This document shows, piece by piece, positions 21,116-51,324 of a DNA stretch of 64,000 bases (position 1 is the first letter of the stretch; every line of letters begins with the position of its first letter). The notes below the pieces were generated by a model. It did no database searches. It saw only the letters and a program-made list of their open reading frames with translations, and had not been told where the DNA came from. Source of the DNA: a virus. The DNA lies in UHGV virus genome UHGV-0385297, one strand, 5' to 3'. The translations under genes and the position numbers were made by a program.

Positions 21116-21126
21116 GTGCCACCTCC

Positions 21127-34257: not shown

Positions 34258-34379
34258 AAAATAAAAAGAAGCGAGATAGCAGTAAAATATATCACTTCTT
34301 TATAAATAAATATTCTATACTGAACAAAATTGCGTTTTCCGCAACTTTTTTAAAATGCGCAAATTTTATTTTTATACCA

Positions 34380-34450
34380 CGTTGTCCGATATTTTCACAA
34401 ATGTCCGATTATCCACCATTACATTGCTCCTTTTGGTGGATATTCGGACA
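34380..34450. repeat. TGTCCGA(T) repeats (two direct, one inverted) upstream of int
   Basis: The sequences gttgTCCGATattttcac, aTGTCCGATtatcc and ATTCGGACAaatc. Confidence 0.4.
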
Positions 34451-34715
34451 AATCAAATACTTGATTTTTACTAATATATCAATGTTTTTTTGAGTTTTTT
34501 TGCGAATCGTTACCTCTATACACTCTATTACTTATTATTAGCGTTAGCCACATAGCTTTTCTTTTTCTGATTCTGACGTTCTAATGCGGCTATGCCGCTT
34601 CTTTTTATAAATACCATTTTGAAAATAAGTGTAATTTTTTACACCTTTTCGCTCTAAAAGGTGTAAATATATACACCTACAATGAAGACTTTTTATAGTA
34701 TTTTAAGTAAAAATC

Positions 34716-35285
34716 TTACATATGGTCCTCTAATTCTATACTACTTGATGTCTCTTCAATATTAGCCCATTTACTTTTACTAAATAAATCTACAATTTCT
34801 TTTTCTATATCTTGACCTCTAAGAAAAATATAAGGGTTAACCACAAAACACTTTTTCGTCTTATTTGCATATGTATCGGATTGTCTTTCAACTTTCTTCA
34901 TGATATCTTTTTTACATAATGAACTTATAATTCTTTTAAAAGTTTCATAATTTTCACCTAAGATATCACTTATAGTTTTGCCGTCAACGATCTTGCCATT
35001 ATATCTTAAAATTCCGTCATTATAAGAAATGAAGGGTATGAGTGCCATAGTGACCGCATATTCCTTGGTAGGCAATTCTTTAAATAAAGCCGTAATAGGA
35101 TGTACAAACACCTTGACAAACGCCTCCTTCTTTTGGAAATTTATTATATGTGTTTGTTTATAATTGTTCTGCTGTTGACGTACAATTTTGTCACCTTCAT
35201 ATATTTCACTTAATATTTTTCCATACTCACTGACAACTGTACCAACTCTAATTTTTTCTTTTGTATCAATCATTTGAATCACCAC
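34716..35285 (-). CDS. Hypothetical protein (189 aa)
   Basis: ORF only. Confidence 0.35.
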   Translation of the reverse strand: MVIQMIDTKEKIRVGTVVSEYGKILSEIYEGDKIVRQQQNNYKQTHIINFQKKEAFVKVFVHPITALFKELPTKEYAVTMALIPFISYNDGILRYNGKIVDGKTISDILGENYETFKRIISSLCKKDIMKKVERQSDTYANKTKKCFVVNPYIFLRGQDIEKEIVDLFSKSKWANIEETSSSIELEDHM

Positions 35286-35607
35286 CTATCGAGAAGCTTT
35301 ATAGTTGGCTACGATTTCTTCAAGTTCTGGTGATTCATTAAAATAGAATACGTTTTTCCCATTTTGATTTTCATTTGGACGCATATCCAGTAATACAAAA
35401 CCATGCTGCATTAAAATACCTGCAAGTTTCATGTTAAAAATTGTTTTAATTTTTGTGTCTCTCATATGTTTTATTCTCCATTCATTTGATATAATTGCAC
35501 ATCACTCGCAAGAGTGGTGTGCGAGGATTGAGCCTCTGGCTCGATCCTATAGTGCCACAGGCACATACTTAGTTATTTTCCATTTCATAAATAAAACTTT
35601 GAATTAA

Positions 35608-35691
35608 TGGGTAGAGCAGGAGTCGAACCTGCGGTGTTTCTGATGTAACCGATTTACAGTCGGTTGCCCTCGCCTCTAGGCACATCTACCC
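35608..35691 (-). tRNA. tRNA-Tyr (anticodon GTA), long variable arm
   Basis: Acceptor GGGTAGA/TCTACCC, T-loop GGTTCGACTCC, anticodon loop CTGTAAA. Confidence 0.7.
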
Positions 35692-35766
35692 AAATTATAA
35701 GAGTGCGTAGCCATAATAGACCACGCACCCATACACAAAAAGACTAATGAATTTTCATATCTAAAA

Positions 35767-36033
35767 TTACTTTGCTTCTTTAGCAACCTCAGCAGCTTCA
35801 TCTGGATGAGCAGCCGCCCACTTGTCACATTCCTTCTCGAATGTAGTGCCAGGGAATGTCAGCCAACCCTTTGCCTTACATCTTGGACAATCATCTGGAT
35901 GGCTCTTGCCCATACCAGGACCAAACTGAGACATATGCTGCTCATATTCAGCTTTCTCCATTGGGGACTCATATTCAATTTTTCTATGCTTGTAATCGTA
36001 AATCATACAAAAGCTCCTTTCATAAAAACGCAA
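35767..36033 (-). CDS. Hypothetical protein (88 aa)
   Basis: ORF only. Confidence 0.35.
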   Translation of the reverse strand: MRFYERSFCMIYDYKHRKIEYESPMEKAEYEQHMSQFGPGMGKSHPDDCPRCKAKGWLTFPGTTFEKECDKWAAAHPDEAAEVAKEAK

Positions 36034-36039
36034 AAATAG

Positions 36040-36390
36040 TTACTTATTTTCCTCTTCCTGTTTAGGAAGAAGTTTATCTACAGCTTTATCTAGCTGCTGT
36101 TTTCCATAAGATTCAATGCTCTCAAATGCACGATCTACAATCTGAGAGATCATTTCAACAGTAAAAATAGGACGCATATATACAGGCACAAAAGCATATA
36201 GTTTTTCCACTACATACTCATGTTTCATGCCACCGGCTTTTATTGTATCCTTATATACAGACTCAGCTTCTGAGATATAATCGCCAGCAACTTCTTTTAA
36301 CCTGGAATTCGTCCTAAAATAAAGGCTCAGACCGCCAAGGATAACCCATACGACAATCTGAGCAATTTGAATAATTGTATTAATATCCAT
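36040..36390 (-). CDS. Membrane protein with an N-terminal TM helix (116 aa)
   Basis: IVVWVILGGLSLYF transmembrane segment. Confidence 0.4.
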   Translation of the reverse strand: MDINTIIQIAQIVVWVILGGLSLYFRTNSRLKEVAGDYISEAESVYKDTIKAGGMKHEYVVEKLYAFVPVYMRPIFTVEMISQIVDRAFESIESYGKQQLDKAVDKLLPKQEEENK

Positions 36391-36405
36391 AATATTTTCC
36401 TCGAA

Positions 36406-37020
36406 TTAATAACCGAGAAGCTTTAGAAAATCCTTCATCTGTTTTTCAGATAACTTTTCAGAAGTGTAGAATGTATGACTGGTATACTTACCATCTTCAG
36501 ACTTACTTACGGTAAATCCATGAATATCATCATCTTCGTCAGTTTCTACATCCAGATTCATTTCACCGTCATGTAGCTCTGCACAATCTTCACAGTTTCC
36601 ATCACATTCATCTGTAAGACCAAATAGAATAACTTCCTTCTCAAGGTCTTTACATTCTTCAATCACGTCCTGAGAGACGGAACCGTCCATATCAATGTAG
36701 AAAATATCTGCATCATACAGATCACCGTAATCATCCAGTGGGATGACAGTTACATAACCTTCGTCAGTTACGCTTAACATATATTCAATATCTGGATCGT
36801 CATCAGTAAGATCAACCCTCCAAATACTGGTTTCATCCAGATCCATAACCTCGTCAAAAATGTATTCGACCAGATCTCTGCCCGCGATCAGAGCTACAGT
36901 TTTATCTGTATGATATAAATGATGAATGAACTTATATGCTAATTCTGTGTAGTCATAAACAGTGATAATGTTTAAATTTTCTTTAACTTCAGGTGTTTTA
37001 TTTTCAGTTACCTTTTTCAT
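36406..37020 (-). CDS. Acidic hypothetical protein (204 aa)
   Basis: ORF only. Confidence 0.4.
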   Translation of the reverse strand: MKKVTENKTPEVKENLNIITVYDYTELAYKFIHHLYHTDKTVALIAGRDLVEYIFDEVMDLDETSIWRVDLTDDDPDIEYMLSVTDEGYVTVIPLDDYGDLYDADIFYIDMDGSVSQDVIEECKDLEKEVILFGLTDECDGNCEDCAELHDGEMNLDVETDEDDDIHGFTVSKSEDGKYTSHTFYTSEKLSEKQMKDFLKLLGY

Positions 37021-37099
37021 TTAAACGTATTTTCCTTTCATTCCTTATGTCGGATGCAATATGTACTATTTATTTTTTCTGGGATGGGAGAGTGTTAAA

Positions 37100-37399
37100 T
37101 TAAGCACCCTTTACAGCATCCTTTAAAGCGGAGCCAGCCTTAAACTTAACAGTCTTAGTAGCTGCAATTTCAATCTCTTCACCAGTAGCAGGATTTCTAC
37201 CAATTCTTGCAGGTCTTTCTGCTACATCAAAGCTACCAAAGCCGGTGATTGCAACCTTCTCACCCTTAACCAGTGCATCCTTAACTGCTTCAAAAACTGC
37301 ATCTACAAAAATAGTAGTATCCTTTAAAGAAATCTTTGCATACTTCTCGTCCTGTACTGCAATTGTCTGTACGTTCTTTACTAATTCGGTCTTGTTCAT
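37100..37399 (-). CDS. hup: DNA-binding protein HU
   Basis: MNKTELV...GFGSFDVAERPARIGRNPATGEEIEI is the classic HU signature. Confidence 0.85.
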   Translation of the reverse strand: MNKTELVKNVQTIAVQDEKYAKISLKDTTIFVDAVFEAVKDALVKGEKVAITGFGSFDVAERPARIGRNPATGEEIEIAATKTVKFKAGSALKDAVKGA

Positions 37400-37444
37400 A
37401 AAATAAATATCTCCTTTTTCTCGTTAAAATTTTTTAAAATAAAA

Positions 37445-37480
37445 AAGGGTAGCTGCTCCGAATGGAGTCAACTCCCTATG
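37445..37480 (-). terminator. Rho-independent terminator between the metallophosphoesterase and HU genes
   Basis: On the minus strand, GGGAGTTGACTCCATTCGGAGCAGCTACCC followed by a T-run. Confidence 0.45.
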
Positions 37481-37907
37481 ATTAGTTACGATTTTCTTTG
37501 CGGATGATCGAGAACCTATTTGTTTATGCGATTTTAGCTGATCGACAACAGCGGGTTTGTCACCCAAAAATATTGTGAATTCTATAATAGTATAGTATAA
37601 TTGCTTCTGCGGAGTTTCTTCCGCATTCTAAGCTGCTAGTTTTTCCAAAAGATGAATAATCTTGAAGAAAGGCGGTGGTGTATAATGTTTAAGTGTGTGT
37701 ACCCTTACATTGTGCATGTCAGTGCTTACTGGCGGTTCCGACTGAATAAGTGGGAATTCGTTAGAACACATTGGCGAAGGCTACCCAGTTTGTAGCCAAG
37801 CATCGTTCATCCTAGAGACAGGATCAACTCTCGTGTTCTTGTCATTTTTTCTAAGATAACTAGCAGCTTTCTTCTTTTTTATCCCGCTTCGGCAATTATG
37901 TCTACTT

Positions 37908-39098
37908 TTATACAAGTTCAATAGGGTAGTAACAAGCTACTCCTTTTTGATTACAGATACATACCATCTGAGATGGTTTTCCAGATAATCTCTTCTCAAT
38001 AGTAAATTGATCACCTGAACCAGCTAAAGTACCACCTCGAATCATTTTTACTCCATTTGCTTCATCAACTGCACAAGTGTGCATGTGACCCATAATTAAG
38101 GCATATGGGAAATACCCAAGCATAGAGCAGAGATTATATGTACCTGCTTTAGAGAATGGGTCGTAGTCTCCGTGAACAACAGTGTAAAACTTTCCACGAA
38201 TATCCAAGTCTACAATACCTACATCCAAATTTCTCTTTAAAATATGGATATTAGATATATGCTGTAAAGATAAACCAACACCCCATGTAATAATGTCATC
38301 AAGACGTTCATCGTGTAATGCATCTTCCTTACGCTCAATCCTGGTATGATTCCCAACTACACTTGAAATAAATACATTTGAAAAATGTTTAGACAATTCA
38401 TAGCAGAAAGATGAAATAAGTTCGGTTGCAATCTTAATCTGTTCGATAACATTTTCTCTATTTGTTACCTGTAAACTTTTATGGATGGACCCTGAAATCA
38501 TATCTCCACATAAAACCACATAACATTTCTCTGAATTATGTAACTCCCTAATAGCAATTACTTCGTTCAGTAATTTATTAAGCCTTTCAGCGGCAATATT
38601 GGAATTGTATTCTCCCCAAACAGAATTAAAGCACTGTCCAATATGAAAATCACTTAAGACAATTAACATATCATTATCAGATGTAACATCTACTTTTTCA
38701 TGAGTCTCAAAATTAGTACGCCCAAGCTGAGAAAGTGTACTTTCCAGCAGGTCTAATTTATTTTCTACACGGGCATCAATATAATTCTGTCTCTGCCAAG
38801 CAGTTCGTTCATCTCTAAACTGAATTTTCTTTCGTTCTAGTTCACGGATCTGTTTATCCAACTCATTATTACGGTTTTCCTTAGAGAATACTTCTGTATT
38901 GAAATCTTTAGCATTGTTGTAACGCTTACGATAAGCACTCTCAGAGCGATAAACGGTTTCATCTTCCCTAAACGCCTTATTAATCAATGCAGCAATTTCG
39001 TCCCATGTCATATCTAAAAGGCCGTTTTCTTTTGCCTGTCCTAATCTCCAAATATACTGAAGTTCGGATTCTCCGTTTAATAAATCTGTATTAAACAA
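37908..39098 (-). CDS. Calcineurin-like metallophosphoesterase
   Basis: Motifs VLCGDM, GNHTR, VVHGDYD and GHMHT. Confidence 0.65.
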   Translation of the reverse strand: MFNTDLLNGESELQYIWRLGQAKENGLLDMTWDEIAALINKAFREDETVYRSESAYRKRYNNAKDFNTEVFSKENRNNELDKQIRELERKKIQFRDERTAWQRQNYIDARVENKLDLLESTLSQLGRTNFETHEKVDVTSDNDMLIVLSDFHIGQCFNSVWGEYNSNIAAERLNKLLNEVIAIRELHNSEKCYVVLCGDMISGSIHKSLQVTNRENVIEQIKIATELISSFCYELSKHFSNVFISSVVGNHTRIERKEDALHDERLDDIITWGVGLSLQHISNIHILKRNLDVGIVDLDIRGKFYTVVHGDYDPFSKAGTYNLCSMLGYFPYALIMGHMHTCAVDEANGVKMIRGGTLAGSGDQFTIEKRLSGKPSQMVCICNQKGVACYYPIELV

Positions 39099-39114
39099 TC
39101 ATTCACCAACTCTC

Positions 39115-39330
39115 TTACGCATCTTCTTCATCGGAAGCAGTTGGCTCAGGAATATCCTCATCGACCTTTACTTTGATCACGATTTCTACTTCACTGCCCT
39201 CAAAGTCTTTCCACAAACAAGATAACTTCTTATCTTCACCGTCCACGGTAATAGTCATATTTTCAACATCAATTAAGCCTGCAGTCTTTAAAGAAGTAGT
39301 AGTGCTGCGTTTATATACTAGATTTGCCAT
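39115..39330 (-). CDS. Hypothetical protein (71 aa)
   Basis: ORF only. Confidence 0.35.
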   Translation of the reverse strand: MANLVYKRSTTTSLKTAGLIDVENMTITVDGEDKKLSCLWKDFEGSEVEIVIKVKVDEDIPEPTASDEEDA

Positions 39331-39378
39331 TTGATTTTTCTCCTTTTACTCAAAAAATAGAAGAGTGGTATACTCTTC

Positions 39379-40074
39379 TTAGATGATTTCGTCTAAACTG
39401 GTAATAATCTTGTCAGCTACGCCATATTCAATTGCTTCGCTTGAAGATAAATACCAATCGTTTTCAAAATTTTCATAAAATACATCTTCTGGAATTTTTG
39501 TTCTTGACAGAACAAATTTTCCTAATTCTTCAATTTGTCTCTGATAATTTAGAATAGCAGCAACGACATCATTGTAGCTTCCGCTAAACTGACCTGCTCC
39601 TTTATGGATGAGAAATTCAGCCGTTGGGAATGTCAGTCTCTCATGACAAGCTAAATAAATAAAGCAACCGCTAGAAGCTGCCATACCAACATTAATGCCA
39701 ATTACTTTTGTTGTACTTAAAGAAATTGTATCTACTAAGCAGTTGTTAACTTCTAAATCTCCGCCTGGGCTAAAGAAAATGACTTTAATTGGCTTACGAT
39801 CCTTTACAGGGATATTGTTTTTATTATCTTCGGAATTCCACTGCATAATCATTTTTGCATATTCCAAAGTCATAGTAGTGATTTCATCATCAATCCAGAT
39901 GATCCTATCATCATAATTCTTATAGAATTGTAAAAGACTAGGATCTGGAAGTTGTAAATTCTCTACGTTACTTGGAATTGCGATATCAAGATATGTAGCA
40001 TCTAATTTCTTTTTATTTGGGATTTCTTTAATCTTTATTTTATTTAGAAGTTCTTTAATTTCCTTTTTGTTCAT
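39379..40074 (-). CDS. ClpP-family serine protease
   Basis: FFSPGGDL...GMAASSGCFIYLAC matches the ClpP active-site region. Confidence 0.65.
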   Translation of the reverse strand: MNKKEIKELLNKIKIKEIPNKKKLDATYLDIAIPSNVENLQLPDPSLLQFYKNYDDRIIWIDDEITTMTLEYAKMIMQWNSEDNKNNIPVKDRKPIKVIFFSPGGDLEVNNCLVDTISLSTTKVIGINVGMAASSGCFIYLACHERLTFPTAEFLIHKGAGQFSGSYNDVVAAILNYQRQIEELGKFVLSRTKIPEDVFYENFENDWYLSSSEAIEYGVADKIITSLDEII

Positions 40075-40197
40075 AGGCGTTAAAGCCTCCGATTTCGTAA
40101 TATTTACTCTTTATGAGCATAAAAAAAGAGAATGCTTTTAAACATTCTCTTTGCCAAATGCATGGCTACTGGCGGCACGACCAGCTTTCCTATATAA

Positions 40198-41367
40198 TTA
40201 AGAACATAATAAAAGAGAGTCTTTATTTAGACTCTCTGGATTTATTATATAAGTTTTATCGTTATTAAAAAAATAATTATCTAAAATAGAATTTATATTG
40301 TCTCGCTCCCAATATGGAATACGCATTAATGGAATATTATAATCTATACAATGAAGATTCTTTGCCTGATCACGTTCTTTATTTTCCGTAAAATTAATGC
40401 TTGCAATTTCGATGCCATCTCCATTAAAATCGATAGGCATGTAATGTTGTTCTCCATCAAATTCAATCGCCATATTTAGTTTTGGTAAGTAAAAATCAAA
40501 TCTCAATGGGTTATCCCAATAGGCAGTATAAATTTCATGAGTGTCATGTTCATAAACATAATTATGCTCTTTTAAATAAGCTAAGATTGTTTTTTCTCCA
40601 ATGGAACAAGTACATTCATTGCATTTCGTTTTACCTTTTAAAAATAATCCATAACTTGTAGTATAGGGCTGACCGCATACCTCACAAGAAATTAAAAGGT
40701 TATAATCATTATAAGATGTATAATTCGATAATAATTTATTTTTCCCATTTGCTTCTATGGTTGCACGTACTTCTTCTATTGAATATTTTTGTTTTTCAAC
40801 CATAGATTCTCTGCCACAATAATAACATCCTCGTCCAGATTTAAGATGTATCCAATTATTCCATTGAATACCTTTATCTATATGTTTATTACAAATATAA
40901 GGCATTTTTGTTTCATTATTTACATAAATTGATGGCATCATAATACAATCATTATCTTTGAAAGTTGAAATCATTTTATTTAATGTTTCAACTTTTTTCG
41001 GGATATTTCTAGCTTCCCATTTTTCTTTTACTTTACCATGGATGTTTGGAGACGCAGTACCATATCTAATCTTTTTAACTTCAACACCTTTTATAGGCGC
41101 ACAATCACGACATGCCACCTTGGAAACAATTGTCGTACCTCTATAATATTTTTTTACTTGCATAGAAAATATTTTTCCACAATAGTCACATTGTACATCA
41201 ATAAATTTATCACTTGAATGGGGAATATCTTCGAACCTTACTTCAAATTTATCTCCAAACTTTGTAAACCGATATCCTTTTTCTTCATAATAAGATTTTT
41301 GTGAGCCATTCCATTCTACTAATAATTTTTCTGTAATAACCATTTCGCAACGTTCCTTTCGTAACAA
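40198..41367 (-). CDS. Multi zinc-ribbon protein with a C-terminal DUF559/Vsr-like endonuclease domain
   Basis: Repeated CxxC...CxxC modules. C-terminal RFDFYLPK...IEFDGEQHY. Confidence 0.5.
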   Translation of the reverse strand: MLRKERCEMVITEKLLVEWNGSQKSYYEEKGYRFTKFGDKFEVRFEDIPHSSDKFIDVQCDYCGKIFSMQVKKYYRGTTIVSKVACRDCAPIKGVEVKKIRYGTASPNIHGKVKEKWEARNIPKKVETLNKMISTFKDNDCIMMPSIYVNNETKMPYICNKHIDKGIQWNNWIHLKSGRGCYYCGRESMVEKQKYSIEEVRATIEANGKNKLLSNYTSYNDYNLLISCEVCGQPYTTSYGLFLKGKTKCNECTCSIGEKTILAYLKEHNYVYEHDTHEIYTAYWDNPLRFDFYLPKLNMAIEFDGEQHYMPIDFNGDGIEIASINFTENKERDQAKNLHCIDYNIPLMRIPYWERDNINSILDNYFFNNDKTYIINPESLNKDSLLLCS

Positions 41368-41370
41368 AGA

Positions 41371-41553
41371 TTAGGAAATAAGATATGTATTCTTTTCGAT
41401 ATCCCATTTCTCTAAGTTTTTATAAAGTAAATTATTTTTTTTAAATAAAAAGACCAAAAATCCTTTCGACTTTTGATCTGTATCAATTCTGATTACTGGA
41501 CAACCATTTTCAATTAGAAAATTTGCAAGTCGTTTACTTTTGCATACAAACAT
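41371..41553 (-). CDS. Hypothetical small protein
   Basis: ORF only. Confidence 0.3.
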   Translation of the reverse strand: MFVCKSKRLANFLIENGCPVIRIDTDQKSKGFLVFLFKKNNLLYKNLEKWDIEKNTYLIS

Positions 41554-41567
41554 TCAAAGATTTCTCC

Positions 41568-42806
41568 TTACATCTCATCTGCAATAGCAGCAATTTTACT
41601 TCTATAAATATTTTGAAGTTCAACTTCTCCATAGAAGTCCTGGCCTCTAAACACTTCTGACATTCTTCTCATACCATTGTTCCCACCGGCATATTGAGCA
41701 AGATCAACCTGTGCAGTGTAATCACCATCAATAATACAGATAGAATCTTCACCGATTCTTTGAAGAGCAAGTTTCATTAAAGAGATATCCATATTCTGAG
41801 CTTCTGTGATATAAACACCTGCATTCATACCGCTAGTGTCAAAACCACGAATATCTGACATAGGTAAGAGAGAAAGTTTTCCATCAAAAATTAACCGCTG
41901 GACTTCAATCATTCCACCTAGTTTACTGCTTAACATATTTCCAATCTGAGAATCGCATAGTTTCTCGTCTTTTGAGCCAGGATAATACCCCAGCTTTGCA
42001 CTATTTGCAGTAGCAACTGTATTACAAAAAACAATAATTTTATCAATTTTATGTTTTTCTAACTGATAGAATAAGAAACCTAACCCAAGGTAACTTTTAC
42101 CTGTGCCTGCAGGTCCTTTAATCATAGTTACTTGATTGGTCTGTAAACTATTTAAAACAAGTTGTTGATAAATATCTCCTTGATATGGATTAATCGTTCC
42201 GAAGAAATTAGTTTTAATGTTTGTAAATTTTACATTCTTGTACATTTCTCCGTCCCATTTCATTTTGTCAACAACTTCATTCTTTTCATTTTTTATAATG
42301 AGATATTGATTTGGAAGTAAATCATAGATATTTTCTGTAAGATGTTCATAGAAATAAGCCATATCTGGTTCAGATAATGATTTCTCAATAAAACCTTTGT
42401 ATTCGTCATCAATATTGTTTTTTACACTATCAACATTAAGACCAAATACCCATTTAGCAATTGTTTTACATGCAATATCATTTGTGATGAATAATACATC
42501 TGGAATAGTTGTAGCACATGCACAAATTTGATTGTCTGGTGTGTTTTCAAGACCTTTTTCTTCAATAATATTTAAAATATCATTTGTCACAACCACAACA
42601 TTAAACTTTTCTGGATTCTCATCAAGAATATGAAGAGTTTTTCTTGCAGCAAATTTTACTTCTTCATCTTTATTTCTTGATACTTTGATGTGTTCCATTT
42701 CGTGAAGAGAAGTAGAACTAATATAAAATTTTTCAGTATTTTCTAATAACTTATTCTGCAATAGCAGAAGAGCATTAGTATCATAAAAAATAGCGATGGT
42801 TTCCAA
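41568..42806 (-). CDS. PIN-domain + PhoH-like ATPase (YlaK-like)
   Basis: Walker A GPAGTGKSYLG. N-terminal PIN-like region. Confidence 0.6.
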   Translation of the reverse strand: METIAIFYDTNALLLLQNKLLENTEKFYISSTSLHEMEHIKVSRNKDEEVKFAARKTLHILDENPEKFNVVVVTNDILNIIEEKGLENTPDNQICACATTIPDVLFITNDIACKTIAKWVFGLNVDSVKNNIDDEYKGFIEKSLSEPDMAYFYEHLTENIYDLLPNQYLIIKNEKNEVVDKMKWDGEMYKNVKFTNIKTNFFGTINPYQGDIYQQLVLNSLQTNQVTMIKGPAGTGKSYLGLGFLFYQLEKHKIDKIIVFCNTVATANSAKLGYYPGSKDEKLCDSQIGNMLSSKLGGMIEVQRLIFDGKLSLLPMSDIRGFDTSGMNAGVYITEAQNMDISLMKLALQRIGEDSICIIDGDYTAQVDLAQYAGGNNGMRRMSEVFRGQDFYGEVELQNIYRSKIAAIADEM

Positions 42807-42846
42807 CCGCCTTTCCTGTATATTTCGTTAATTATTGATCATTCAA

Positions 42847-43029
42847 TCAATGAACGATAGAATTTTTAGCATTCTGCTTTAGCAGCCACAGAACTTCTCT
42901 TTCCTCGACTGCCCAATATCTCTTTGCTCTGGACTTATGTGTAACAGAAGAAATCTTCACACAGTCTCCATATCCAGCTTTTCTTAACATCTGGGCTTCA
43001 CTCTGAGTAATCTTAATTATAATAAACAC
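42847..43029 (-). CDS. Hypothetical small protein
   Basis: ORF only. Confidence 0.25.
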   Translation of the reverse strand: MFIIIKITQSEAQMLRKAGYGDCVKISSVTHKSRAKRYWAVEEREVLWLLKQNAKNSIVH

Positions 43030-43069
43030 TTCTTTCTTTATATATTTCTCCTATGATGGGAGATGAGTA

Positions 43070-43142
43070 ATGAATCCGGTTGGAATCGAACCAACGACAT
43101 AGGGATTTTCAGTCCCTTACTCTACCAACTGAGCTACAGATC
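43070..43142 (-). tRNA. tRNA-Phe (anticodon GAA)
   Basis: GGATCTGTAGCTCAGTTGGTAGAGT...CTGAAAA...GGTTCGATTCC. Confidence 0.75.
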
Positions 43143-43170
43143 CGTGCAACGGGTGTCTTACCCGAAAGAA

Positions 43171-43241
43171 TAGCGGGAGCTGGATTTGAACCAGCGTTCT
43201 CTAGGTTATGGGCCTAGTGACTTATCCTCTTGTCCATCCCG
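43171..43241 (-). tRNA. tRNA-like with a CAT anticodon (Met or Ile2). The structure is imperfect.
   Basis: Anticodon stem CTAGG/CCTAG with loop CCCATAA. T-arm GCTGG-TTCAAAT-CCAGC. Acceptor 6 of 7 bp, D-stem 3 bp. Confidence 0.45.
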
Positions 43242-43321
43242 CAATAATTTTATATATGGCTGGATATGTTTACACATATAATTCCATTTAACAGCCCACA
43301 GGCTGACCATGTATGTAATTT

Positions 43322-44140
43322 CTAATCACGAACTTTATTAATCTGATCTAATACTTCATCAATTTCTGCTTCATATAATTTCGCACAGCAAGCATATAAA
43401 TTATCAATATATCCGAACTGTTCTGCATATTTTATAACAGTAAGCTGATCTTTTTTCTTGACCTGCTTTAAGTTATAATTTTCAGTTTTCTGTTCTAAAT
43501 CAATATGGAAATTTTCTCTGAAACATTTGTATAATTCCTTATACCTGTTAGCATAATTTCCGCTTCTACGTCTACAAATCCTATTGATAATATCCTTTTT
43601 CTTATAAAGTGGGACATCATCAGTAAGACCGTTAATTACTTCTTGTTTATGAATAATTTCTTTTTTCTGGGAATTGATTTTTTGATCTTTTAATCTGAGC
43701 TGTTCATTCTGACTTCGAATAGTCTGAAGAGTAGTAGAAAATAGAAGTTTAGTATTCTCATCTGCAAATGGAAGATATGTGTCTATGAATAAGTTATCAT
43801 TGTTTATATATCCGCCAGTTTTACGAATTGTTGGAAGTACCTCAGATGTTACCCAGCGCTTAAAACGCTTGGCAGACTCAAGTTTACTGCCAAAAATCAG
43901 CGCATATAATCCAGATTCATTAATAATTACCATTTTCTGAATTCCACCAGGGGTCATCAAATCAGTGACTCCCTTATCTGTTCCATCAACATGTTTTGCT
44001 ACGGCATTGGCAATAGATTTTCCTTTCCCATATCCAAGTGCTTCTGCTATATCTTTTCCCACGAACCACGGCTCGCCATCAATTACTAAAGTTCTTACTT
44101 CACCAAATTCTTCATTTTTAAAAATTTCTAAATCTTGCAT
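43322..44140 (-). CDS. Bro-N domain antirepressor-like protein
   Basis: FGEVRTLVIDGEPWFVGKDIAEALGY is a Bro-N signature. Confidence 0.6.
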   Translation of the reverse strand: MQDLEIFKNEEFGEVRTLVIDGEPWFVGKDIAEALGYGKGKSIANAVAKHVDGTDKGVTDLMTPGGIQKMVIINESGLYALIFGSKLESAKRFKRWVTSEVLPTIRKTGGYINNDNLFIDTYLPFADENTKLLFSTTLQTIRSQNEQLRLKDQKINSQKKEIIHKQEVINGLTDDVPLYKKKDIINRICRRRSGNYANRYKELYKCFRENFHIDLEQKTENYNLKQVKKKDQLTVIKYAEQFGYIDNLYACCAKLYEAEIDEVLDQINKVRD

Positions 44141-44372
44141 AAATTATTTCCTTCCTACGCATTTGGGCAGCGCATCACCACATACAATATTTACAGTTAC
44201 TTGCCGATAACTCTTGTTATCTTATGAGAGATGACTGCGGCAACAATCATCTCGTAAAGAAATATTTATGCAAAACAGAGGTAATCACCTCTCATAAAAC
44301 AACAAGTTATTGTACGAATTTCTATTAATATATTCTCTCTTTCACACATGGAAAATTTTTGAGAATTATGAT

Positions 44373-44446
44373 AGCGAGATAAAGGAATCGAACCGATATA
44401 TCTCCGCATTAAAAGTACGGCGCTCTACCTTTTGAGCTAATCTCGC
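44373..44446 (-). tRNA. tRNA-Lys (anticodon TTT), with a weak T-stem
   Basis: Acceptor GCGAGAT/ATCTCGC, D-stem GCTC/GAGC, anticodon loop CTTTTAA, T-loop TTCGATT. Confidence 0.5.
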
Positions 44447-44898
44447 CAGACGCCAATAGGCATACTACAGGACGCAGTACACCCATCAGCAAAAGAAAAA
44501 ATATAGAAGAAAGGGTAAAACATATGAATATCTACATCTAAAATTTTAAGTAGCCATAGCAGCCAAGTACAAATCTTTACGGCAATTACATAACCCGCAT
44601 ATAAACTTTCTCCTGGATTTGATAAAATTTTAAAATTTATACATTGAACTTTAGAAGAAAAAGAAGTTTGAAAAATGAGTTTTAAACATTGAATTCTGAG
44701 CTTTGAACTTTTATCATCTTATGTAATATACTATTACAAAATATATTATTTGATAAAAATTTGCATTAGGCGCACAATTTTCTTCAAATTCCAATATTTA
44801 TTAACCTTTTAAGGAATATCTTCCTCTCCGTGATAACCCGCACGGAGAAACGGGATGTAAGTTCAAGATTTTCGCTATAACTACAAAAATATCACATT

Positions 44899-45531
44899 TT
44901 AAAAACTTACTTCGATGAAAGAAGTAGCATTACTCAGAGTAAGCTGAGAGTCAATGTTACTTAAGAAACCATCAATGTCTGCTTCAAGTTTCTGGATCTT
45001 ATCATAAAGATCAATCGGGTCTACAAACTCATATTCGTTCTGTAAACGATATGGTTTTACTACTGCATCCTGTTCCTCAGTAGTGAGTTTCTTAGCGCTG
45101 TCTTTACCAACTAAGGTAGTAAGCAGACTATCCACTTTTTCGTCTACCTTTTTGTTCTCTTTATCAACTAAAGTAGTGGCAGCACTGTAATCCAGCTTCA
45201 TCTTGCGTAAAAGGTTCTGTTCGTACTCAATGGAATTTTTACGCTCAATGCCTTCTGCACGAGTCATTTCCACACCATTTACTGTAATCTTTGTAATAGC
45301 ATTGGATAATACAATTTTAGATTTTAACTCTGAATGATTTTTAATAAGATCGGTTGCAGATTGAAAATCTGCCTTGCATCTATCTTTAAATGTCTCTTTG
45401 GAAACGGCACCAATTCTATCGGATGATTTCTTAGCTGCACCACAAAAATTTGCGTTTACAATTGCTTTATTAATTCTTGCGTCTAATAATTTTAGTTCAG
45501 TTAAAGCTTCGGTAACTGTAATTTTTCTCAT
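44899..45531 (-). CDS. Hypothetical protein (210 aa)
   Basis: ORF only. Confidence 0.4.
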   Translation of the reverse strand: MRKITVTEALTELKLLDARINKAIVNANFCGAAKKSSDRIGAVSKETFKDRCKADFQSATDLIKNHSELKSKIVLSNAITKITVNGVEMTRAEGIERKNSIEYEQNLLRKMKLDYSAATTLVDKENKKVDEKVDSLLTTLVGKDSAKKLTTEEQDAVVKPYRLQNEYEFVDPIDLYDKIQKLEADIDGFLSNIDSQLTLSNATSFIEVSF

Positions 45532-45668
45532 AATGATATACTCCTTTTTATCCTGATTGCATTTTTAAACGACTGCATTGTGCCGATGTTACGATTAATT
45601 ACATTGTTTTCCATACCTGTTATATAACACCATAAAATCACTCAAAAATGGCGTAATTAAGCCAAAAA

Positions 45669-46532
45669 CTAAGCTTTTCTATTTGTGGTATTACGTTTTT
45701 CGTTATATTTTTTATATCTAATTAAATCATTTTTTCTCTTACACTCACCACAATACATTTTCTTATTTCCTGTTTTTTCAATCAGTGCGCCACATTGTTT
45801 ACAGCGAGTGTACTTATTATTGTGTCCACGCTTAACTCCATAATATTCTTTCTGATAATTTCGAATATAATAGGAAAGAGAACGATTTATGTACTTAACA
45901 TAGAAATGATCTTCAGTAATAAAATCAAAATTATTTACAAGCTTTGTCTTATCTTCATACTCGTCAATCAATTTACAATTGTCAAAACACTTTCTAAGAA
46001 AACCCTCAATTATGATTTTGTACTCGTTCCAGGAAAGGGTCATTTTTTCTTTCTGAAATCTTTCTTTCGTGGTTAAAGCTTTATCCATAATGTCATCTAT
46101 GACAGAAGTAGCATTTTCTTCGGTCATATCTACACCAGAAGCCCATTTGTAATACAATTGTTTTGGCTTTTTGAGCAAATCCATATATTCCTTATTTAGA
46201 ATTACTTCTTTATCAAAATATTTCGTATAAATATTATTTATTTTTTGCCTTATAATTGAACACCAATTTTGATTTTTGGAAACAGATTTATAGTATTTAT
46301 ATTCAATCATGGACCATGCATCAAATACTTGTCCAACTGGTGTTCCCAGTAAATTCTTTGCTACCTTAAATCGAATAGCTTTCTTATATGTTCTTCTTTT
46401 ATTTCCACATGACCAGATGGCGGAGCAGAACGAAGAGAAAACTTCGTCCTTTTGCTCCTGAGTCTGTAGTTCTTTGTATTTTTCTATAATTTCATATAGA
46501 AATGTTTCGTTACAGTCGTAAATATGTATCAC
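45669..46532 (-). CDS. Hypothetical protein with a C-terminal CxxC zinc finger (possible transcription factor partner of the RNA polymerase)
   Basis: CKQCGAL...CGECKRK. Confidence 0.35.
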   Translation of the reverse strand: MIHIYDCNETFLYEIIEKYKELQTQEQKDEVFSSFCSAIWSCGNKRRTYKKAIRFKVAKNLLGTPVGQVFDAWSMIEYKYYKSVSKNQNWCSIIRQKINNIYTKYFDKEVILNKEYMDLLKKPKQLYYKWASGVDMTEENATSVIDDIMDKALTTKERFQKEKMTLSWNEYKIIIEGFLRKCFDNCKLIDEYEDKTKLVNNFDFITEDHFYVKYINRSLSYYIRNYQKEYYGVKRGHNNKYTRCKQCGALIEKTGNKKMYCGECKRKNDLIRYKKYNEKRNTTNRKA

Positions 46533-49140
46533 CTACTTCAAATTCATAATATTTTCCAAGATATTCATAAGTATTATATGATTTGTATGGAACTTCTCGA
46601 ATAGAAATATTTCGCTTTGGATTAGTATTATTTTTTAAATTCTCAATAATATATTCTCCATAAGCAGCCCAAGCTAAAGATTTACTGATTGAAAGAGAAG
46701 AGTATGAAGTTGCAATAACATAATTGGCAATAACATCTTCGTCAAGTTTAAGTTTTTCAGAAATATTATCTTTATATTTCTTTACAACTTCGTCCATACT
46801 AAAATCATTATTTTCATCTTTATGTAAATTTAGATGCTGCTTTATTTCATCTGCATACATATTGATGAATTTCTTACACTCTTTAATGACTCCTTTATCT
46901 TTTAGATTAAGGTCATTGTTGACGATTAAGCATCTTGTATCTATAAGATCATTAACACTGTTATCCCATTTAATATTCTTTTTCTCCCATGTCTCGATGT
47001 ATTCACATAATTCATTCATAGGAGAAGGAGACCTATAGGCATTCAATTTTTCTTTCTCATCTGGTTCAACTCCCTTATTTTTACTAAGAATATTCTGATA
47101 CGTTTTCATTTTTTGAGGATAATTATGAAGCAAGAAATACGGTAGCTGTTTTAAATGTTTTCTCAGACCACTATTCATATGCCACCTAAAACCGGTTTTA
47201 AGAAAATCAATTTCTTTGCCCTGGAAAATTCTTAGAAGAGAAGAGGAATCAGAGTATAACTTCTGAATATCTGGATTTGTTGTATACCGATTCTCAATGC
47301 TTGTTGCTACATTGGTTATTTCACCAATACGGTTATCTCTTGTCATTACTTCATACTCAATTAAATTTTCTTTCGTATATGGTTTTGACTTTGCTGTAAC
47401 CTTATCTTCGACATCAAGAATAATATGTTTGTCAATTTTTGAACCAATAACAATTGGTTCGTTGCACAAAAAGAAAATATCCCCGTCAAAATCTGCCCCT
47501 CCCTGCTGCGGGGCAGATATATCATACATATTAAACATCACGACATCTTGATCTTTAAAATATCCGAACCATTTATTTAAAATGTCATTTCGCACAATTT
47601 GAATCTTGTTTACTTCAGATGGGTCCACAAGAGGAGATCTAAAAGAAGCACAATATCCTGGTTCAAAATTTGCAGTATATAATTCTCTTTCTTTTAAGCA
47701 ACCGACTGGATTTTCTCCGACTGCATATTGAAGATAACCAATCATATCACCAACACCTGTATGATAAAAACCAGAACAATAAATTTTTCCTACTTTTGCC
47801 TCATCAATGGATTTTTTTAATTTTCTATAAATAAACTGCTTTACTGCAGGATCCTTCAACATTACATCATTGATCAATGCTGCTTCGAGATATTTACTTT
47901 CTGGCTCATATCCATCTGTATCATTTATACCCATGAATTTGTAGGTATAAAATTTATCTCCTTTAATAATCTTCTCGAATAGGTTAGTAGTGTATTTTGC
48001 CAATTTGATGATTTTTCCATCATTGTCAGGATTTAAAACGTCATATTCTTTTCTATTTTTATCTACAAAACTATTGATGTATTTCTCATTCCATAGATCA
48101 AGACATTGTAAATACTGAAAATTCATTCTGGTGTACTTGTTTAAGTGCTTTACATGATGGCTATACTTACTAATACCTAATTTAAACTGATATTTCTGTA
48201 ATGTCTTCATATATTCAATCCATGCATCATTTCCATACTTTGATTTAAAAATCTTATGACCTTTAAACATTGAGATGTTCCAGATACAATCAATATCATC
48301 GATTTTATGCTCATATCCATAGATATCAGTAATAGTAGTGTATCCCCATTCCTTTAGAATTTGTTTAAATGGAACATATACGGAATATCCTTTTATAAAT
48401 GGCAGACGAACCTGGTTTCCAATAACGTCATAGCCTAAATCCAACTGTGTACTAACAGTTTTCATAAATTCTCTTTCATGACAACCACATCCATCAAAAG
48501 GAGATAATCCTATATCTCTTAAACCTTCTTCAATTTCTCTAACTTTATATTTTTTGGACTCACCAGTTTCTTTATCTACGAAAGTTTTTTCTTTTTCTAT
48601 GACATATTTGATAAGCTGATCATTTAAAGTTTTTTCATATTCACCGATGATAACAATATTTGGAATATAATCTTTAATGAGAGTACAGGAGCTAAACGGG
48701 AGACATCTTTGCGCTTCATATTTAGAAATAACGCACTCATCAATTTCAATATCCATTTGAGTGATCATGTATAATTCATCGAAAATTTCGTCACATACAA
48801 AAGCAGTAATACCGTCTTTTCCCTGAGATGCAGATTTTCCAAAACGAGAATAATGAGTACCGTTATACGTAAATCCATTATTAAGAATATCTCGCAGTGC
48901 GGTTTCTTGTTTTGGATTCTTTTTTGCGACTATAAGCATAAGCTCTTTAATATGTGTTGAAAATCTACCTCTTAGCCTTTGAATCTGATCAAACAATAAG
49001 GAATCACCTTGTTTAATAAGATATTCATTATCTATTTCTTCATTTTTACTTAGACTCAAATCATATTCTGAATCAATGAGTTTTTTGATTGGTAACTTAA
49101 CCAAAGTGTATTGAATTGATTTTATAATAAACACCACCAT
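46510..49140 (-). CDS. Putative single-subunit two-barrel RNA polymerase (YonO-like), 876 aa
   Basis: Contains QQGGADFDGDIFF, which matches the universally conserved NADFDGD Mg-binding motif of the beta-prime/DPBB catalytic barrel. Confidence 0.5.
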   Translation of the reverse strand: MVVFIIKSIQYTLVKLPIKKLIDSEYDLSLSKNEEIDNEYLIKQGDSLLFDQIQRLRGRFSTHIKELMLIVAKKNPKQETALRDILNNGFTYNGTHYSRFGKSASQGKDGITAFVCDEIFDELYMITQMDIEIDECVISKYEAQRCLPFSSCTLIKDYIPNIVIIGEYEKTLNDQLIKYVIEKEKTFVDKETGESKKYKVREIEEGLRDIGLSPFDGCGCHEREFMKTVSTQLDLGYDVIGNQVRLPFIKGYSVYVPFKQILKEWGYTTITDIYGYEHKIDDIDCIWNISMFKGHKIFKSKYGNDAWIEYMKTLQKYQFKLGISKYSHHVKHLNKYTRMNFQYLQCLDLWNEKYINSFVDKNRKEYDVLNPDNDGKIIKLAKYTTNLFEKIIKGDKFYTYKFMGINDTDGYEPESKYLEAALINDVMLKDPAVKQFIYRKLKKSIDEAKVGKIYCSGFYHTGVGDMIGYLQYAVGENPVGCLKERELYTANFEPGYCASFRSPLVDPSEVNKIQIVRNDILNKWFGYFKDQDVVMFNMYDISAPQQGGADFDGDIFFLCNEPIVIGSKIDKHIILDVEDKVTAKSKPYTKENLIEYEVMTRDNRIGEITNVATSIENRYTTNPDIQKLYSDSSSLLRIFQGKEIDFLKTGFRWHMNSGLRKHLKQLPYFLLHNYPQKMKTYQNILSKNKGVEPDEKEKLNAYRSPSPMNELCEYIETWEKKNIKWDNSVNDLIDTRCLIVNNDLNLKDKGVIKECKKFINMYADEIKQHLNLHKDENNDFSMDEVVKKYKDNISEKLKLDEDVIANYVIATSYSSLSISKSLAWAAYGEYIIENLKNNTNPKRNISIREVPYKSYNTYEYLGKYYEFEVGDTYLRL

Positions 49141-49183: not shown

Positions 49184-49687
49184 CTACTCAATTTTTTCAT
49201 ATGCGTATCCGTCATCTGTAGTATAGTAAACATGTTTTATTCCTATATCTCTAATAGCAGCCATACAAGATGGACAAGGTCGTGCCAGTTTAAACACACC
49301 CCCATATCCTGCACGGTATATGTACAGTTTTACCTTTGAGAAATTAATATCCATATCACGGATCGCCGCCAGACAATTTATTTCTGCATGAAGTCGAGGC
49401 AATGTTTTATAACCTTTGTCGTATTCAATATGTCTATATCTGTTATATTTTTTCTGTAATGGATGAGTTTTGACGGTATTACAACCGATAGAAATAATAG
49501 ATCCTTGATAGACGGCTACACAGCCTACATGAGTTTTATGATAATCGGATAGGAGAGCAGTTTGATAAGCTTTCTGAAAATATTTCTGATCTGTCTTAGT
49601 TATCATGATTTTTTCTACTGTCTCTCTGTTTGGACCAAGCTTCACAAGATTTGTTGAAAGCAATATCTCGCATAAGGCATTCATCAA
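49184..49687 (-). CDS. dCMP deaminase (cytidine/deoxycytidylate deaminase family). The true start may be the internal ATG at 49606.
   Basis: HAEINCL and PCPSC zinc-binding motifs. Confidence 0.8.
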   Translation of the reverse strand: MMNALCEILLSTNLVKLGPNRETVEKIMITKTDQKYFQKAYQTALLSDYHKTHVGCVAVYQGSIISIGCNTVKTHPLQKKYNRYRHIEYDKGYKTLPRLHAEINCLAAIRDMDINFSKVKLYIYRAGYGGVFKLARPCPSCMAAIRDIGIKHVYYTTDDGYAYEKIE

Positions 49688-49793
49688 TTTCTGTCATACT
49701 ATATGGATGACCGTATGCATTGCGCGCGATTACACCTCCAAATGTGTGCTGGTACTTATGGTTCTTTGATTCGATGGTTACTGTTGTGTTCAT
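49596..49793 (-). CDS. Hypothetical small protein
   Basis: ORF only. Confidence 0.3.
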   Translation of the reverse strand: MNTTVTIESKNHKYQHTFGGVIARNAYGHPYSMTEIDECLMRDIAFNKSCEAWSKQRDSRKNHDN

Positions 49794-49860
49794 TGTTAAT
49801 TTCTCCTTTGATTTTTAAAATATTTTTATTCACGATGTTCACCTTTCCTATGTGAAACTC

Positions 49861-50643
49861 TTATATATTGTTATTCTCTAAAAGTTCTATTTGTTTTTCG
49901 ATTTCCTTATTGCAATCATAGGTTTGATCAATTACCTGGTTGCCATAACTGTCTTTCGTGAAATGTCTGTAATCTGCAAAAACTTTAGGTGTAGTAATAT
50001 ATTTTTCACGAGTTGAGGTGCTGTCTTTGATTCTCTTCATAGCTTTTGATTTTATAATTTCTAATGCATCTAAAATTTCTACTATCCTACCTACGTAACG
50101 TTCTGAAAGTCCTGTTTCATCTGAAATGGTTTTATAATGCCGGTAACAGCATAATGGGGATGTTGAAGATCTATTCATATTTAGACGGAGATAAGATAGA
50201 AGCAATAGAATATATGAAGAAGACATACGGATCGTGTCTACGGAAGTTCCTTCTAATTCTTCTTTAAAATTTAAAATTTTTTCAAGCTCATCGAAGTAAA
50301 TAATTCCAAAACGATCTGGTATATCAAATTTTTCAATATTAAGTTTTACCTGCAGGTATTTCACAGAATTAGTATGTTCTTTTAAACACTTTTCAAAGTC
50401 AGGAAACGTTTCAAAATAATTCTGGTCTGCAAGAAGTAGTAATGTATTATAATATTTCTGATTAATCTTTCCATCTCGGTAATTTGGCTTAAGTTTTGAC
50501 CAGTGGCATAATTCTGTAGTAGAAAATGCCACTGTGTCATCAAGAGAACGCCTTGCACATAAGTATGAAAAGATAATCACACGTTTATCCGATAGGGCAG
50601 TATCATATATAATTTCTTTTGGAATCTTCACATAATTAGGCAA
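49861..50643 (-). CDS. Putative DNA-binding / replisome organizer-like protein
   Basis: Position in the early operon next to iteron-like repeats. No clear motif. Confidence 0.3.
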   Translation of the reverse strand: MPNYVKIPKEIIYDTALSDKRVIIFSYLCARRSLDDTVAFSTTELCHWSKLKPNYRDGKINQKYYNTLLLLADQNYFETFPDFEKCLKEHTNSVKYLQVKLNIEKFDIPDRFGIIYFDELEKILNFKEELEGTSVDTIRMSSSYILLLLSYLRLNMNRSSTSPLCCYRHYKTISDETGLSERYVGRIVEILDALEIIKSKAMKRIKDSTSTREKYITTPKVFADYRHFTKDSYGNQVIDQTYDCNKEIEKQIELLENNNI

Positions 50644-50706
50644 GACGTATCACCTCACTATGCTACAAATGAGCTTATTTTACTGCTATCTACCACTTTT
50701 AATGTA

Positions 50707-51324
50707 TTAATGAGTATGTTTGTTATTTTCATATTCATTTTCAATCTCCTTTGCAATTTTATTACAATATAATTTATATAGTTTTATAACTTCATCATTT
50801 GAAAATCTAATCGTCATATAATTATTCTCCAAAAAGAAAATTCTTCGCATTTTATCTTTTAATTGCTGTAGTTTGTTTGTATGATTTGATCCGTCTATTT
50901 CAATTATCGTTCTCGATTTTCTATCTACAAAATCGGCAATATATCTTTTTACACCATATTTTTTGTATCCATCTTTACCTGTTCCAAATGATATTTGGCA
51001 CTCCAAGTATGGATACATTTCTTTAAATATTCGTTCATGTTTCGTGGTGAATTTATCATTACAACCGCCATGTAAATTAGATTTTTCATAAATTAAATAA
51101 TCTTTATAATTATGTACTTGGGTTATAACATTGTACAACGGTAAACTACTCTCAAATATTTTTTGAGATAAATCAGACAAACAAATGTTATTCATTTTAG
51201 AAAGCTTCTTTTTTAATAAAATCCAATTAAGACGTTCTTTGGAAACATCTATAGATTCTTGATACTTTCTATTAAAAACATTCAGTTCCTCAATGTTAAT
51301 CTGTTGCATTTTTAATTCCTCCAA
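50707..51324 (-). CDS. DUF559/Vsr-like endonuclease domain protein
   Basis: RYIADFVDRKSRTIIEIDGSNH, a paralogous fold to the C-terminus of 40198..41367. Confidence 0.45.
   Translation of the reverse strand: MEELKMQQINIEELNVFNRKYQESIDVSKERLNWILLKKKLSKMNNICLSDLSQKIFESSLPLYNVITQVHNYKDYLIYEKSNLHGGCNDKFTTKHERIFKEMYPYLECQISFGTGKDGYKKYGVKRYIADFVDRKSRTIIEIDGSNHTNKLQQLKDKMRRIFFLENNYMTIRFSNDEVIKLYKLYCNKIAKEIENEYENNKHTH

Follow-up and report, generated by a model that had tools for sequence, protein, structure and literature searches.

Which DNA signal, and which helper protein if any, directs a single-chain RNA polymerase (RNAP) to the late genes of a phage? The question was raised by YonO of the prophage SPbeta, a strictly DNA-dependent and highly processive RNAP with an essential aspartate triad (PMC5467207, Forrest et al. 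2017). Deletion of yonO silences 37 late genes, which form one operon with a single start site (genome position 2225998) downstream of yonO; the promoter and the need for a factor were left open by the 2017 study (PMC5467207). The same question is posed by the UHGV virus genome UHGV-0385297, of which a stretch of 64,000 nucleotides (nt) was analysed, here called the window. On its minus strand, where all features below lie unless stated otherwise, the gene for a YonO-family enzyme overlaps the gene for a zinc-ribbon protein of 287 amino acids (aa), hereafter the partner. Just beyond the partner gene follows a 22-base-pair (bp) element which is conserved in related loci and present as a single copy in the window. 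Partner and element bear directly on the open question of the YonO promoter and factor. In the searchable literature, with most subscription journals outside the search, nothing on a YonO factor or promoter was found beyond the 2017 paper and reviews, nor was there a description of an obligatory partner together with a single conserved motif.

The polymerase gene is an open reading frame (ORF) with an ATG start (46510..49140) that encodes 876 aa. A previous sequence-only reading of this DNA had placed the ORF there, pointed to its GGADFDGD motif and proposed an enzyme of the YonO type and of similar size. Coordinates and motif are accurate, the sizes are indeed close (876 aa compared to 839 aa for YonO), and the homology extends over the whole length: BLASTP aligns query residues 49-838 colinearly with residues 95-792 of SPbeta YonO (E-value 4e-17, 23% identity). 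The Pfam family PF05183, named RdRP for RNA-dependent RNA polymerase, matches residues 78-711 with its model positions 54-578 of 582 (E 1.3e-13, 51 bits; gathering cutoff 23.8 bits). In PHROGs, the protein is a member of the unannotated family phrog_8308 (E 6e-62). A tblastn search of 50,697 phage genomes yielded polymerase homologs in 40 records. The top matches are in TR-TP1 and TR-TP2, two Thomasclavelia phages (30% identity, E 3e-77). Behind them rank Enterocloster phages, the Clostridium phage c-st, and SPbeta with its relatives, whose yonO was matched in 26 Bacillus phage records. An exhaustive HMMER search found 777 homologous representative clusters. An identical polymerase gene is present on a 101-kb IMG/VR contig; a megablast search with the part of the window between 40 and 60 kb revealed no near-identical known phage among the 50,697 genomes. 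A clear match to a primase or helicase family had been named as the result that would speak against a polymerase. No such match was obtained in Pfam, PHROGs, NCBIfam, the PDB or the fold search, and because nothing primase- or helicase-like appeared among the matches, this objection falls away. Judged by its sequence, the 876-aa protein is a member of the YonO family, which is common in Lachnospiraceae phages and prophages. YonO-like proteins of Firmicute phages and of genomes now classed as Clostridia were catalogued between 2003 and 2010 (PMC2919709). The polymerase itself is therefore not new.

The residues of the catalytic centre were examined in an alignment of 56 diverse full-length homologs with identities down to 22%. 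Invariant columns are K140, D216, G217, R245, K250, G251, K293, R501, P503, D550, D552, D554, G606, N610, D645 and K648. Eight residues are common to all two-barrel RNAPs, in QDE-1 D709, R738, K743, R962, P964 and D1007/1009/1011 (PMC2919709, Ruprich-Robert and Thuriaux); R962 and P964 correspond to R446 and P448 of Rpb1 (PMC2919709). All eight are found here as D216, R245, K250, R501, P503 and D550/552/554, each invariant in the 56 homologs, and the spacings D216-R245-K250 and R501-P503 (29, 5 and 2 residues) are identical to those in QDE-1. The GGADFDGD motif (residues 547-554, 47479..47502) carries the catalytic triad D550/D552/D554 and aligns with FDNDGD of YonO, for which a 3D>3N mutant is inactive (PMC5467207). 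The C-terminal, beta-prime-like barrel also comprises the motif R501-S-P503 (47632..47640). The active-site segment of the N-terminal, beta-like barrel extends from D216 to G251 (48388..48495, translation DGCGCHEREFMKTVSTQLDLGYDVIGNQVRLPFIKG). A second barrel with conserved basic residues had been anticipated, and it is there: R245 and K250 are invariant, as is the additional aspartate D216, with QDE-1-like spacing.

The predicted structure agrees with the residues. Based on the 56-sequence alignment, AlphaFold2 yielded a model with a predicted local distance difference test (pLDDT) score of 91.9 and a predicted TM-score of 0.88. When this model was compared by Foldseek with the PDB, the top 21 matches were chains of QDE-1 and RDR2 (E 1e-15 to 4e-19, prob 1.0), aligned over approximately 760-1000 columns with a TM-score of about 0.5 and a sequence identity of 12-15%. 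The next match was gp62, the two-barrel RNAP of Thermus phage P74-26 (E 2e-6), followed by a weak tail of Rpb1-type structures. The comparison with QDE-1 and beta-prime that had been suggested as a check thus turned out in favour of the polymerase. As judged from the overall confidence of the model and from the whole-structure matches, the predicted fold and the residues both place the protein in the superfamily of two-barrel (double-psi beta-barrel) RNA polymerases.

The partner gene (45669..46532) begins with GTG and overlaps the last 23 nt of the polymerase gene. The sequence-only reading had given size and position of this zinc-finger neighbour correctly. At its C-terminus, the protein carries a C4 zinc ribbon (C244/C247/C261/C264, CxxC-N13-CxxC; 45741..45803, translation CKQCGALIEKTGNKKMYCGEC). 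All four cysteines are invariant in 56 non-redundant partner homologs, and zinc-ribbon models recur across the family in Pfam and NCBIfam scans. With an alignment of 12 closer polymerase sequences about 160 related loci were collected. In all 155 loci with sequence at this place, tblastn detected a partner homolog directly 3' of the polymerase gene; among them are Paenibacillus and Lysinibacillus prophages, whose partners are just 28-31% identical. At a polymerase identity of around 35%, the linkage persists and the homolog is still clear (E 1e-60). The reverse test gave the same answer: three partner homologs that were found independently occur in five places, and in all five a PF05183 gene is located directly upstream with an overlap of 14-32 nt. 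The family comprises approximately 1000 proteins, none of which was detected by tblastn in the deposited phage genomes.

What the partner resembles is less clear. Its family conserves a helical body in addition to the invariant C4 ribbon, and by sequence just the ribbon is recognisable. With a pLDDT of 75.5, its AlphaFold model is moderate in quality, which is probably due to the less diverse alignment on which it was built, and Foldseek returned no match for it. Pfam sigma domains were found in none of the 56 members, and NCBIfam sigma models in only two of them, far below the cutoff (E 9e-4 and 5e-3). A PDB profile search with the partner revealed zinc ribbons only, and neither sigma region 2 nor region 4. 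The TFIIB ribbon PF08271 scored E 0.16, so that membership in the TFIIB family is not supported by a profile match. Because the model is moderate, the Foldseek result empty and sigma profiles appear in only 2 of 56 members, the sigma-like reading of the partner is a lead and not a result. The suggestion that the 287-aa protein might be the specificity factor of the polymerase gains from the strict two-way gene linkage and the overlapping frames, a support by association; as to whether the partner acts as an initiation factor, we regard the matter as evenly poised.

Outside the clade, other proteins adjoin YonO-like genes. A family of approximately 210 aa follows the polymerase gene in TR-TP1 (gp4; L002 3798-4427) and in two further loci (L163 3431-4072 and L164 4787-5443). 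TR-TP1 gp4 matches the L163 protein with E 2e-20, and this family differs from the partner; homology of the partner to TR-TP1 gp4 or to SPbeta YonP or YonN was considered and not found. In PMBT24, the polymerase gene is followed by a gene for a 240-aa protein (L170 4968-5690) with a C-terminal zinc ribbon and a weak match to the partner profile. All these neighbours may belong to one very divergent superfamily. In SPbeta and in the Psychrobacillus phage Perkons, HU comes next after the polymerase gene, and there is no adjacent partner. Since SPbeta, Perkons and TR-TP1 have no detectable partner, it is not a general requirement of the polymerase family.

The 22-bp element GTTATATAACAGGTATGGAAAA (45607..45628; about 20-22 bp) was identified de novo. 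It is located 41 nt past the stop codon of the partner gene and 75 nt ahead of the next ATG. Among the eleven non-coding gaps 3' of the polymerase gene, the one after the partner gene is most widely shared, namely with 14 divergent loci; two others are shared with 7-9 loci and the remainder with at most 2. Iterative nhmmer searches found the conserved block in 75 loci. De novo motif discovery by expectation maximisation in 100 non-redundant downstream regions yielded nnTATATATcaanTATgGaAAa with 23 bits. With this matrix, the best site of the entire locus of approximately 13.3 kb, both strands included, is located at most 150 nt after the partner stop codon in 82 of the 100 loci, compared to 0.6 expected. 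Cross-validation was performed because the matrix had been trained on the same regions that it scored: when matrices were trained on one half, the top site of the whole locus fell into this interval in 27, 35, 44 and 35 of 50 held-out loci. In addition, the close and the distant halves of the loci converged independently on TATATATCAnaTATGGAAA and TATATATACAgTAntGGAaA. In the window itself the element scores 24.6 bits, and the next best site 15.6.

The consensus TATATAT-CA-N4-TGGAAA fits a host-type promoter poorly. A sigma-A promoter was expected to show a -35 box TTGACA and a -10 box TATAAT at 16-18 nt spacing, with a conserved A at -11 and T at -7. In the motif, a -35 hexamer is not conserved, and the TATATAT core lacks the T at -7 in either register; it would therefore make a poor promoter for the host enzyme. 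No sigma-70-like site at 45.6 kb is among the best 60 of 81 consensus matches. The motif has the orientation of the late genes. It was absent from SPbeta (yonO-yonK interval), Perkons, TR-TP1, PMBT24 and the loci L162-L164. A search for a motif shared upstream of late genes and different from sigma-70 promoters had been suggested in the sequence-only reading, and the late block is indeed headed by such a conserved motif. The separate promoter class for late genes which that reading implied may amount to just one promoter per genome. A search for repeats that might act as multiple promoters across the late block gave weak, chance-like families only.

These data can be combined into a model in which the window belongs to a large temperate tailed phage of gut Clostridia, with hosts of the Lachnospiraceae type, and the 876-aa protein is its YonO-family two-double-psi-beta-barrel RNAP. 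As a whole, this explanation is likely to be correct. Host RNAP would transcribe a leftward early or middle unit encoding a DUF559 protein, a replication-initiator-like protein, a deoxycytidine monophosphate (dCMP) deaminase, the polymerase and the partner. The phage polymerase would then take over and read the late block, which lies on the same strand and exceeds 45 kb, in a single long unit, as YonO does in SPbeta. Most likely it would start at the one conserved element TATATAT-CA-N4-TGGAAA (45607-45628) just beyond the polymerase-partner operon; the RNA start is expected at or directly after TATGGAAA. The translationally coupled partner would, again most likely, be needed as initiation or promoter-specificity subunit. 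The parts of this model differ in strength. Established are the membership of the polymerase in the YonO family, its catalytic residues and fold, the gene linkage, and that the motif is conserved and unique. The polymerase is very probably DNA-dependent. Its role in late-gene transcription, which we infer from the homology to YonO and the SPbeta-like synteny, is probable. The SPbeta model predicts just such a site, one that occurs once per genome, precedes a very long co-directional block and shares its orientation, and we lean slightly towards reading the motif as the phage polymerase promoter. More tentatively, and with some doubt, the two proteins might form a holoenzyme in which the partner is a dedicated initiation factor, possibly a distant sigma-2-like or TFIIB-like one, that directs the enzyme to TATATAT-CA-N4-TGGAAA; the proteins adjacent to the TR-TP1 and PMBT24 polymerases would then be divergent versions.

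Some observations weigh against this model. Neither a partner homolog nor the motif is detectable in SPbeta, Perkons and TR-TP1. Several minus-strand terminator-like hairpins, e.g. at 41479-41451, 40152-40125 and 39379-39359, are located inside the proposed single late unit, so that transcription of the whole block would require read-through. Furthermore, the motif is tied more tightly to the partner stop codon than to the next gene: across the loci, the median distance is 42 nt after the stop codon (interquartile range 30-51) and 93 nt before the next ORF (range 2-823). Such anchoring would also fit a 3'-end or module-boundary element. Hence, the 22-bp element could be something other than a promoter, such as a signal that terminates the operon or marks its 3' end, a site for packaging (pac) or recombination, or a module boundary kept by recombination. 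In favour of this, the gene content downstream of it differs among relatives, and candidate pac sites of SPbeta are located near its polymerase gene. Those candidates, however, are upstream of yonO and not downstream. The element itself shows neither dyad symmetry nor a hairpin, is oriented strictly with the late genes, and is kept where the flanking non-coding DNA of relatives no longer aligns. We therefore consider a non-promoter role rather unlikely.

A further alternative is that the partner regulates host RNAP at the late promoter, either as a zinc-finger late activator or as a Q-like antiterminator. The motif would then be bound by the partner or belong to a host-type promoter, and the YonO-like enzyme would act elsewhere or only assist. 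A regulator gene directly upstream of the late promoter that it targets is a classic phage layout known from lambda Q and PR', and P2 Ogr is an example of a small zinc-finger late activator. The motif is AT-rich with a TATATA core, and the YonO-type enzymes of SPbeta and Perkons have no adjacent partner. Against such a regulator argues that the partner gene overlaps the polymerase gene and that neither was found without the other in both directions of the linkage test. In addition, the motif has neither a conserved -35 box nor the near-invariant T at -7, the best 60 consensus matches include no sigma-70-like site there, and profile scans of the partner revealed no Q-like or Ogr-like match. Regulation of the host enzyme by the partner is consequently improbable.

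That the enzyme copies phage or host RNA as an RdRP is suggested by the name of the Pfam family, by QDE-1 and RDR2, both RdRPs, as the nearest solved structures, and by the annotation of the TR-TP1, PMBT24 and Perkons homologs as RNA-dependent RNA polymerases. Those phage annotations, however, were carried over from the Pfam name, and QDE-1 was crystallised on DNA templates (7y7r, 7y7t). YonO, the sole characterised phage member, strongly prefers DNA templates (PMC5467207), and the synteny with the SPbeta late module favours transcription, so that an RdRP is very improbable. Equally remote is a role in replication, e.g. as a primase-like RNA synthase: the gene adjoins replication-initiator-like and dCMP deaminase genes, and the two-barrel superfamily includes the replicative DNA polymerase PolD, but none of the searches showed primase or helicase similarity, the polymerase gene is always at the head of the structural block, and it is late transcription that is lost upon yonO deletion (37 silenced genes; PMC5467207).

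The YonO-type transcription model can be set against known systems. SPbeta is the closest. YonO and the 876-aa protein are homologous over the whole length and similar in size, and each has the aspartate triad as well as the second barrel's basic residues. Both belong to large temperate siphovirus-like phages of Firmicutes, and both genes are upstream of and co-directional with HU, YonK/YonJ/YonG-like, terminase and structural genes. They differ in that identity is only approximately 23%, that the overlapping 287-aa zinc-ribbon gene is found here only, that the yonO-yonK interval of SPbeta lacks the motif, and that the host is a Bacillus there and of a gut clostridial lineage here. SPbeta has its own layout with the small yonP upstream of yonO and a terminator and yonN (HU) downstream. 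In their non-coding DNA 3' of the polymerase gene, SPbeta (L001 11312-11325) and Perkons (L172 5092-5105) share an exact 14-mer, TTAATTGCGGTGTA, and the same intervals share the 12-mer ACCTGACAAGAG; 14-mer and 12-mer may be regulatory elements conserved among YonO phages of the Bacillus type.

QDE-1 and RDR2 are the best structural matches and have the eight catalytic-centre residues at near-identical spacing. In contrast to the phage enzyme, with which they share just 12-15% identity, they serve gene silencing, with RNA or single-stranded DNA as substrate, and have neither a phage context nor such a partner. Other phages have gp64 (Thermus phage P23-45), gp62 (P74-26) and gp66 (crAss-like phage phi14:2), which are likewise single-polypeptide two-barrel transcriptases with own promoter motifs of approximately 15-25 bp (PMC10770324). 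In sequence and architecture they are far more distant, and they have an early or pre-early role or are packaged in the virion; the searched text of that source contains no mention of a dedicated adjacent zinc-ribbon partner (PMC10770324). The non-virion RNAPs of the jumbo phages AR9 and phiKZ are two-barrel phage enzymes that recognise promoters via an extra phage subunit without clear sigma similarity (PMC9209446, PMC7618050). This likeness is one of analogy only, as these RNAPs are multisubunit assemblies with split beta and beta-prime (PMC9209446, PMC7618050). Homology of their extra subunit to the partner was not seen, although no comparison aimed at it was made. T7-type RNAPs resemble the proposed enzyme by function only: they are phage-encoded and processive and take over late transcription, but have an unrelated right-hand, Pol I-like fold and many promoter copies per genome, compared to one candidate here. 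T7-type promoters are short and conserved and end in an AT-rich stretch followed by G-rich start bases.

The polymerase gene has relatives on viral contigs of 80-217 kb and in prophages of Lachnospiraceae, Enterocloster, Lacrimispora, Clostridium, Paenibacillus and Lysinibacillus genomes. Since markers for YonJ, YonK, YonG and HU are found 3' of the polymerase gene in relatives, the locus layout mirrors that of SPbeta; the shared module order here and in the relatives is polymerase, HU and YonK/YonJ/YonG-like genes, terminase, portal. In several relatives (L151, L144, L145, L153, L068, L157, L142, L072, L117 and L171), the polymerase gene is split at its most conserved codons. The insertion sites are at residue 549/550 within DFDGD, at 641/642 beside the invariant D645 and K648, and at 798; the insertions measure about 160-1380 nt and are mostly not multiples of three. 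The one in L151 (2551-2854) is a group I intron (Rfam RF00028, 50.7 bits, cutoff 50). In phage c-st (L171), the YonO homolog is annotated as N- and C-terminal parts that flank a 354-aa ORF.

Upstream of the polymerase gene and on the same strand, library matches identified genes for a dCMP deaminase, a replication-initiator-like helix-turn-helix protein and a DUF559 endonuclease (49184..51324). From gene content and position, they are presumed to form the early or middle unit that is transcribed by host RNAP and delivers the polymerase. It is plausible from this context that the polymerase gene belongs to the early region, as the sequence-only reading had assumed. Further upstream follow a 1.6-kb operator-rich regulatory region and a strand switch near 52.9 kb. 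The 1.3 kb from this switch to the first gene of the unit with the polymerase (51383-52640) hold a dense array of the sequence TGTACCYAAA, mostly on the minus strand: 28 matches with at most one mismatch were found compared to 9.4 expected, and about 16 of them are in this stretch. Many form palindromes of the type TTTGGGTATA-N6-TGTACCYAAA, at 51383-51408, 51467-51492, 51524-51550 and 51800-51826. In appearance, the repeats suggest operators for a repressor or iterons of an origin, and their position is equivalent to that of the candidate pac sites of SPbeta. The array was also considered as polymerase promoter and rejected, as the repeats cluster only in the regulatory region (51.38-52.64 kb), palindromic and operator-like. 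The plus strand of the rightward gene block has, at 58731-58800, a borderline match to the Rfam family RF02682 of hepatitis delta virus-like ribozymes (HDV-F-prausnitzii; 44.1 bits, gathering cutoff 44).

The DNA 3' of the motif (1..45531) is a co-directional block with a coding cover of 0.77 on the minus strand compared to 0.03 on the plus strand, and represents the putative late transcription unit. It contains a 210-aa gene, five tRNA genes, Bro-N, PhoH-like, HNH, ClpP-like, exonuclease, HU and tyrosine recombinase genes, two large terminase-like ORFs, a portal gene, a gene for a 1463-aa tape measure protein and, downstream of the latter, an ORF of at least 1853 aa that leaves the window at its left end (1-5559) and probably encodes a giant tail or host-recognition protein. 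The tRNA genes are scattered: Lys-ttt (44372-44447), Met-cat (43170-43244), Phe-gaa (43071-43143), Tyr-gta (35607-35692) and Ser-tga (32705-32789). They would be transcribed by the phage polymerase if the late-unit model is true. Terminator-like hairpins are enriched between 36000 and 54000 (18 compared to 7.2 +/- 2.6 expected). The candidate late promoter is separated from the structural genes by a run of accessory genes (39379-44140), which encode proteins similar to Bro-N/antirepressors (43322-44140), PhoH-like ATPases (41568-42806), HNH homing endonucleases (40198-41367) and ClpP-like proteases (39379-40074). As this run varies from one close relative to the next, it is suggestive of a cargo-gene hot spot. 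The tyrosine recombinase gene (33283-34257; PF00589, E 3e-21) is found in the middle of the block directly upstream of the terminase-like ORFs, an odd position for an integrase and the same in two relatives (L003 and L004); the master repressor of SPbeta is said to be recombinase-like.

YonO is the only characterised member from bacterial viruses of the RdRP-like two-barrel branch and serves as a model for the minimal ancestor of cellular RNAPs. If partner and motif had nothing to do with initiation, the locus would be ordinary and the enzyme just another YonO homolog. The window and the approximately 160 related loci offer a concrete candidate promoter and a candidate factor gene for a large sister clade. 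If the model is true, a minimal RNAP lineage of a type that predates the last universal common ancestor would thereby gain its first initiation factor and its first defined promoter. Gut Clostridia would in this case provide a compact orthogonal set of polymerase, factor and promoter. Moreover, the system would give a handle on how promoter-recognition factors joined two-barrel polymerases.

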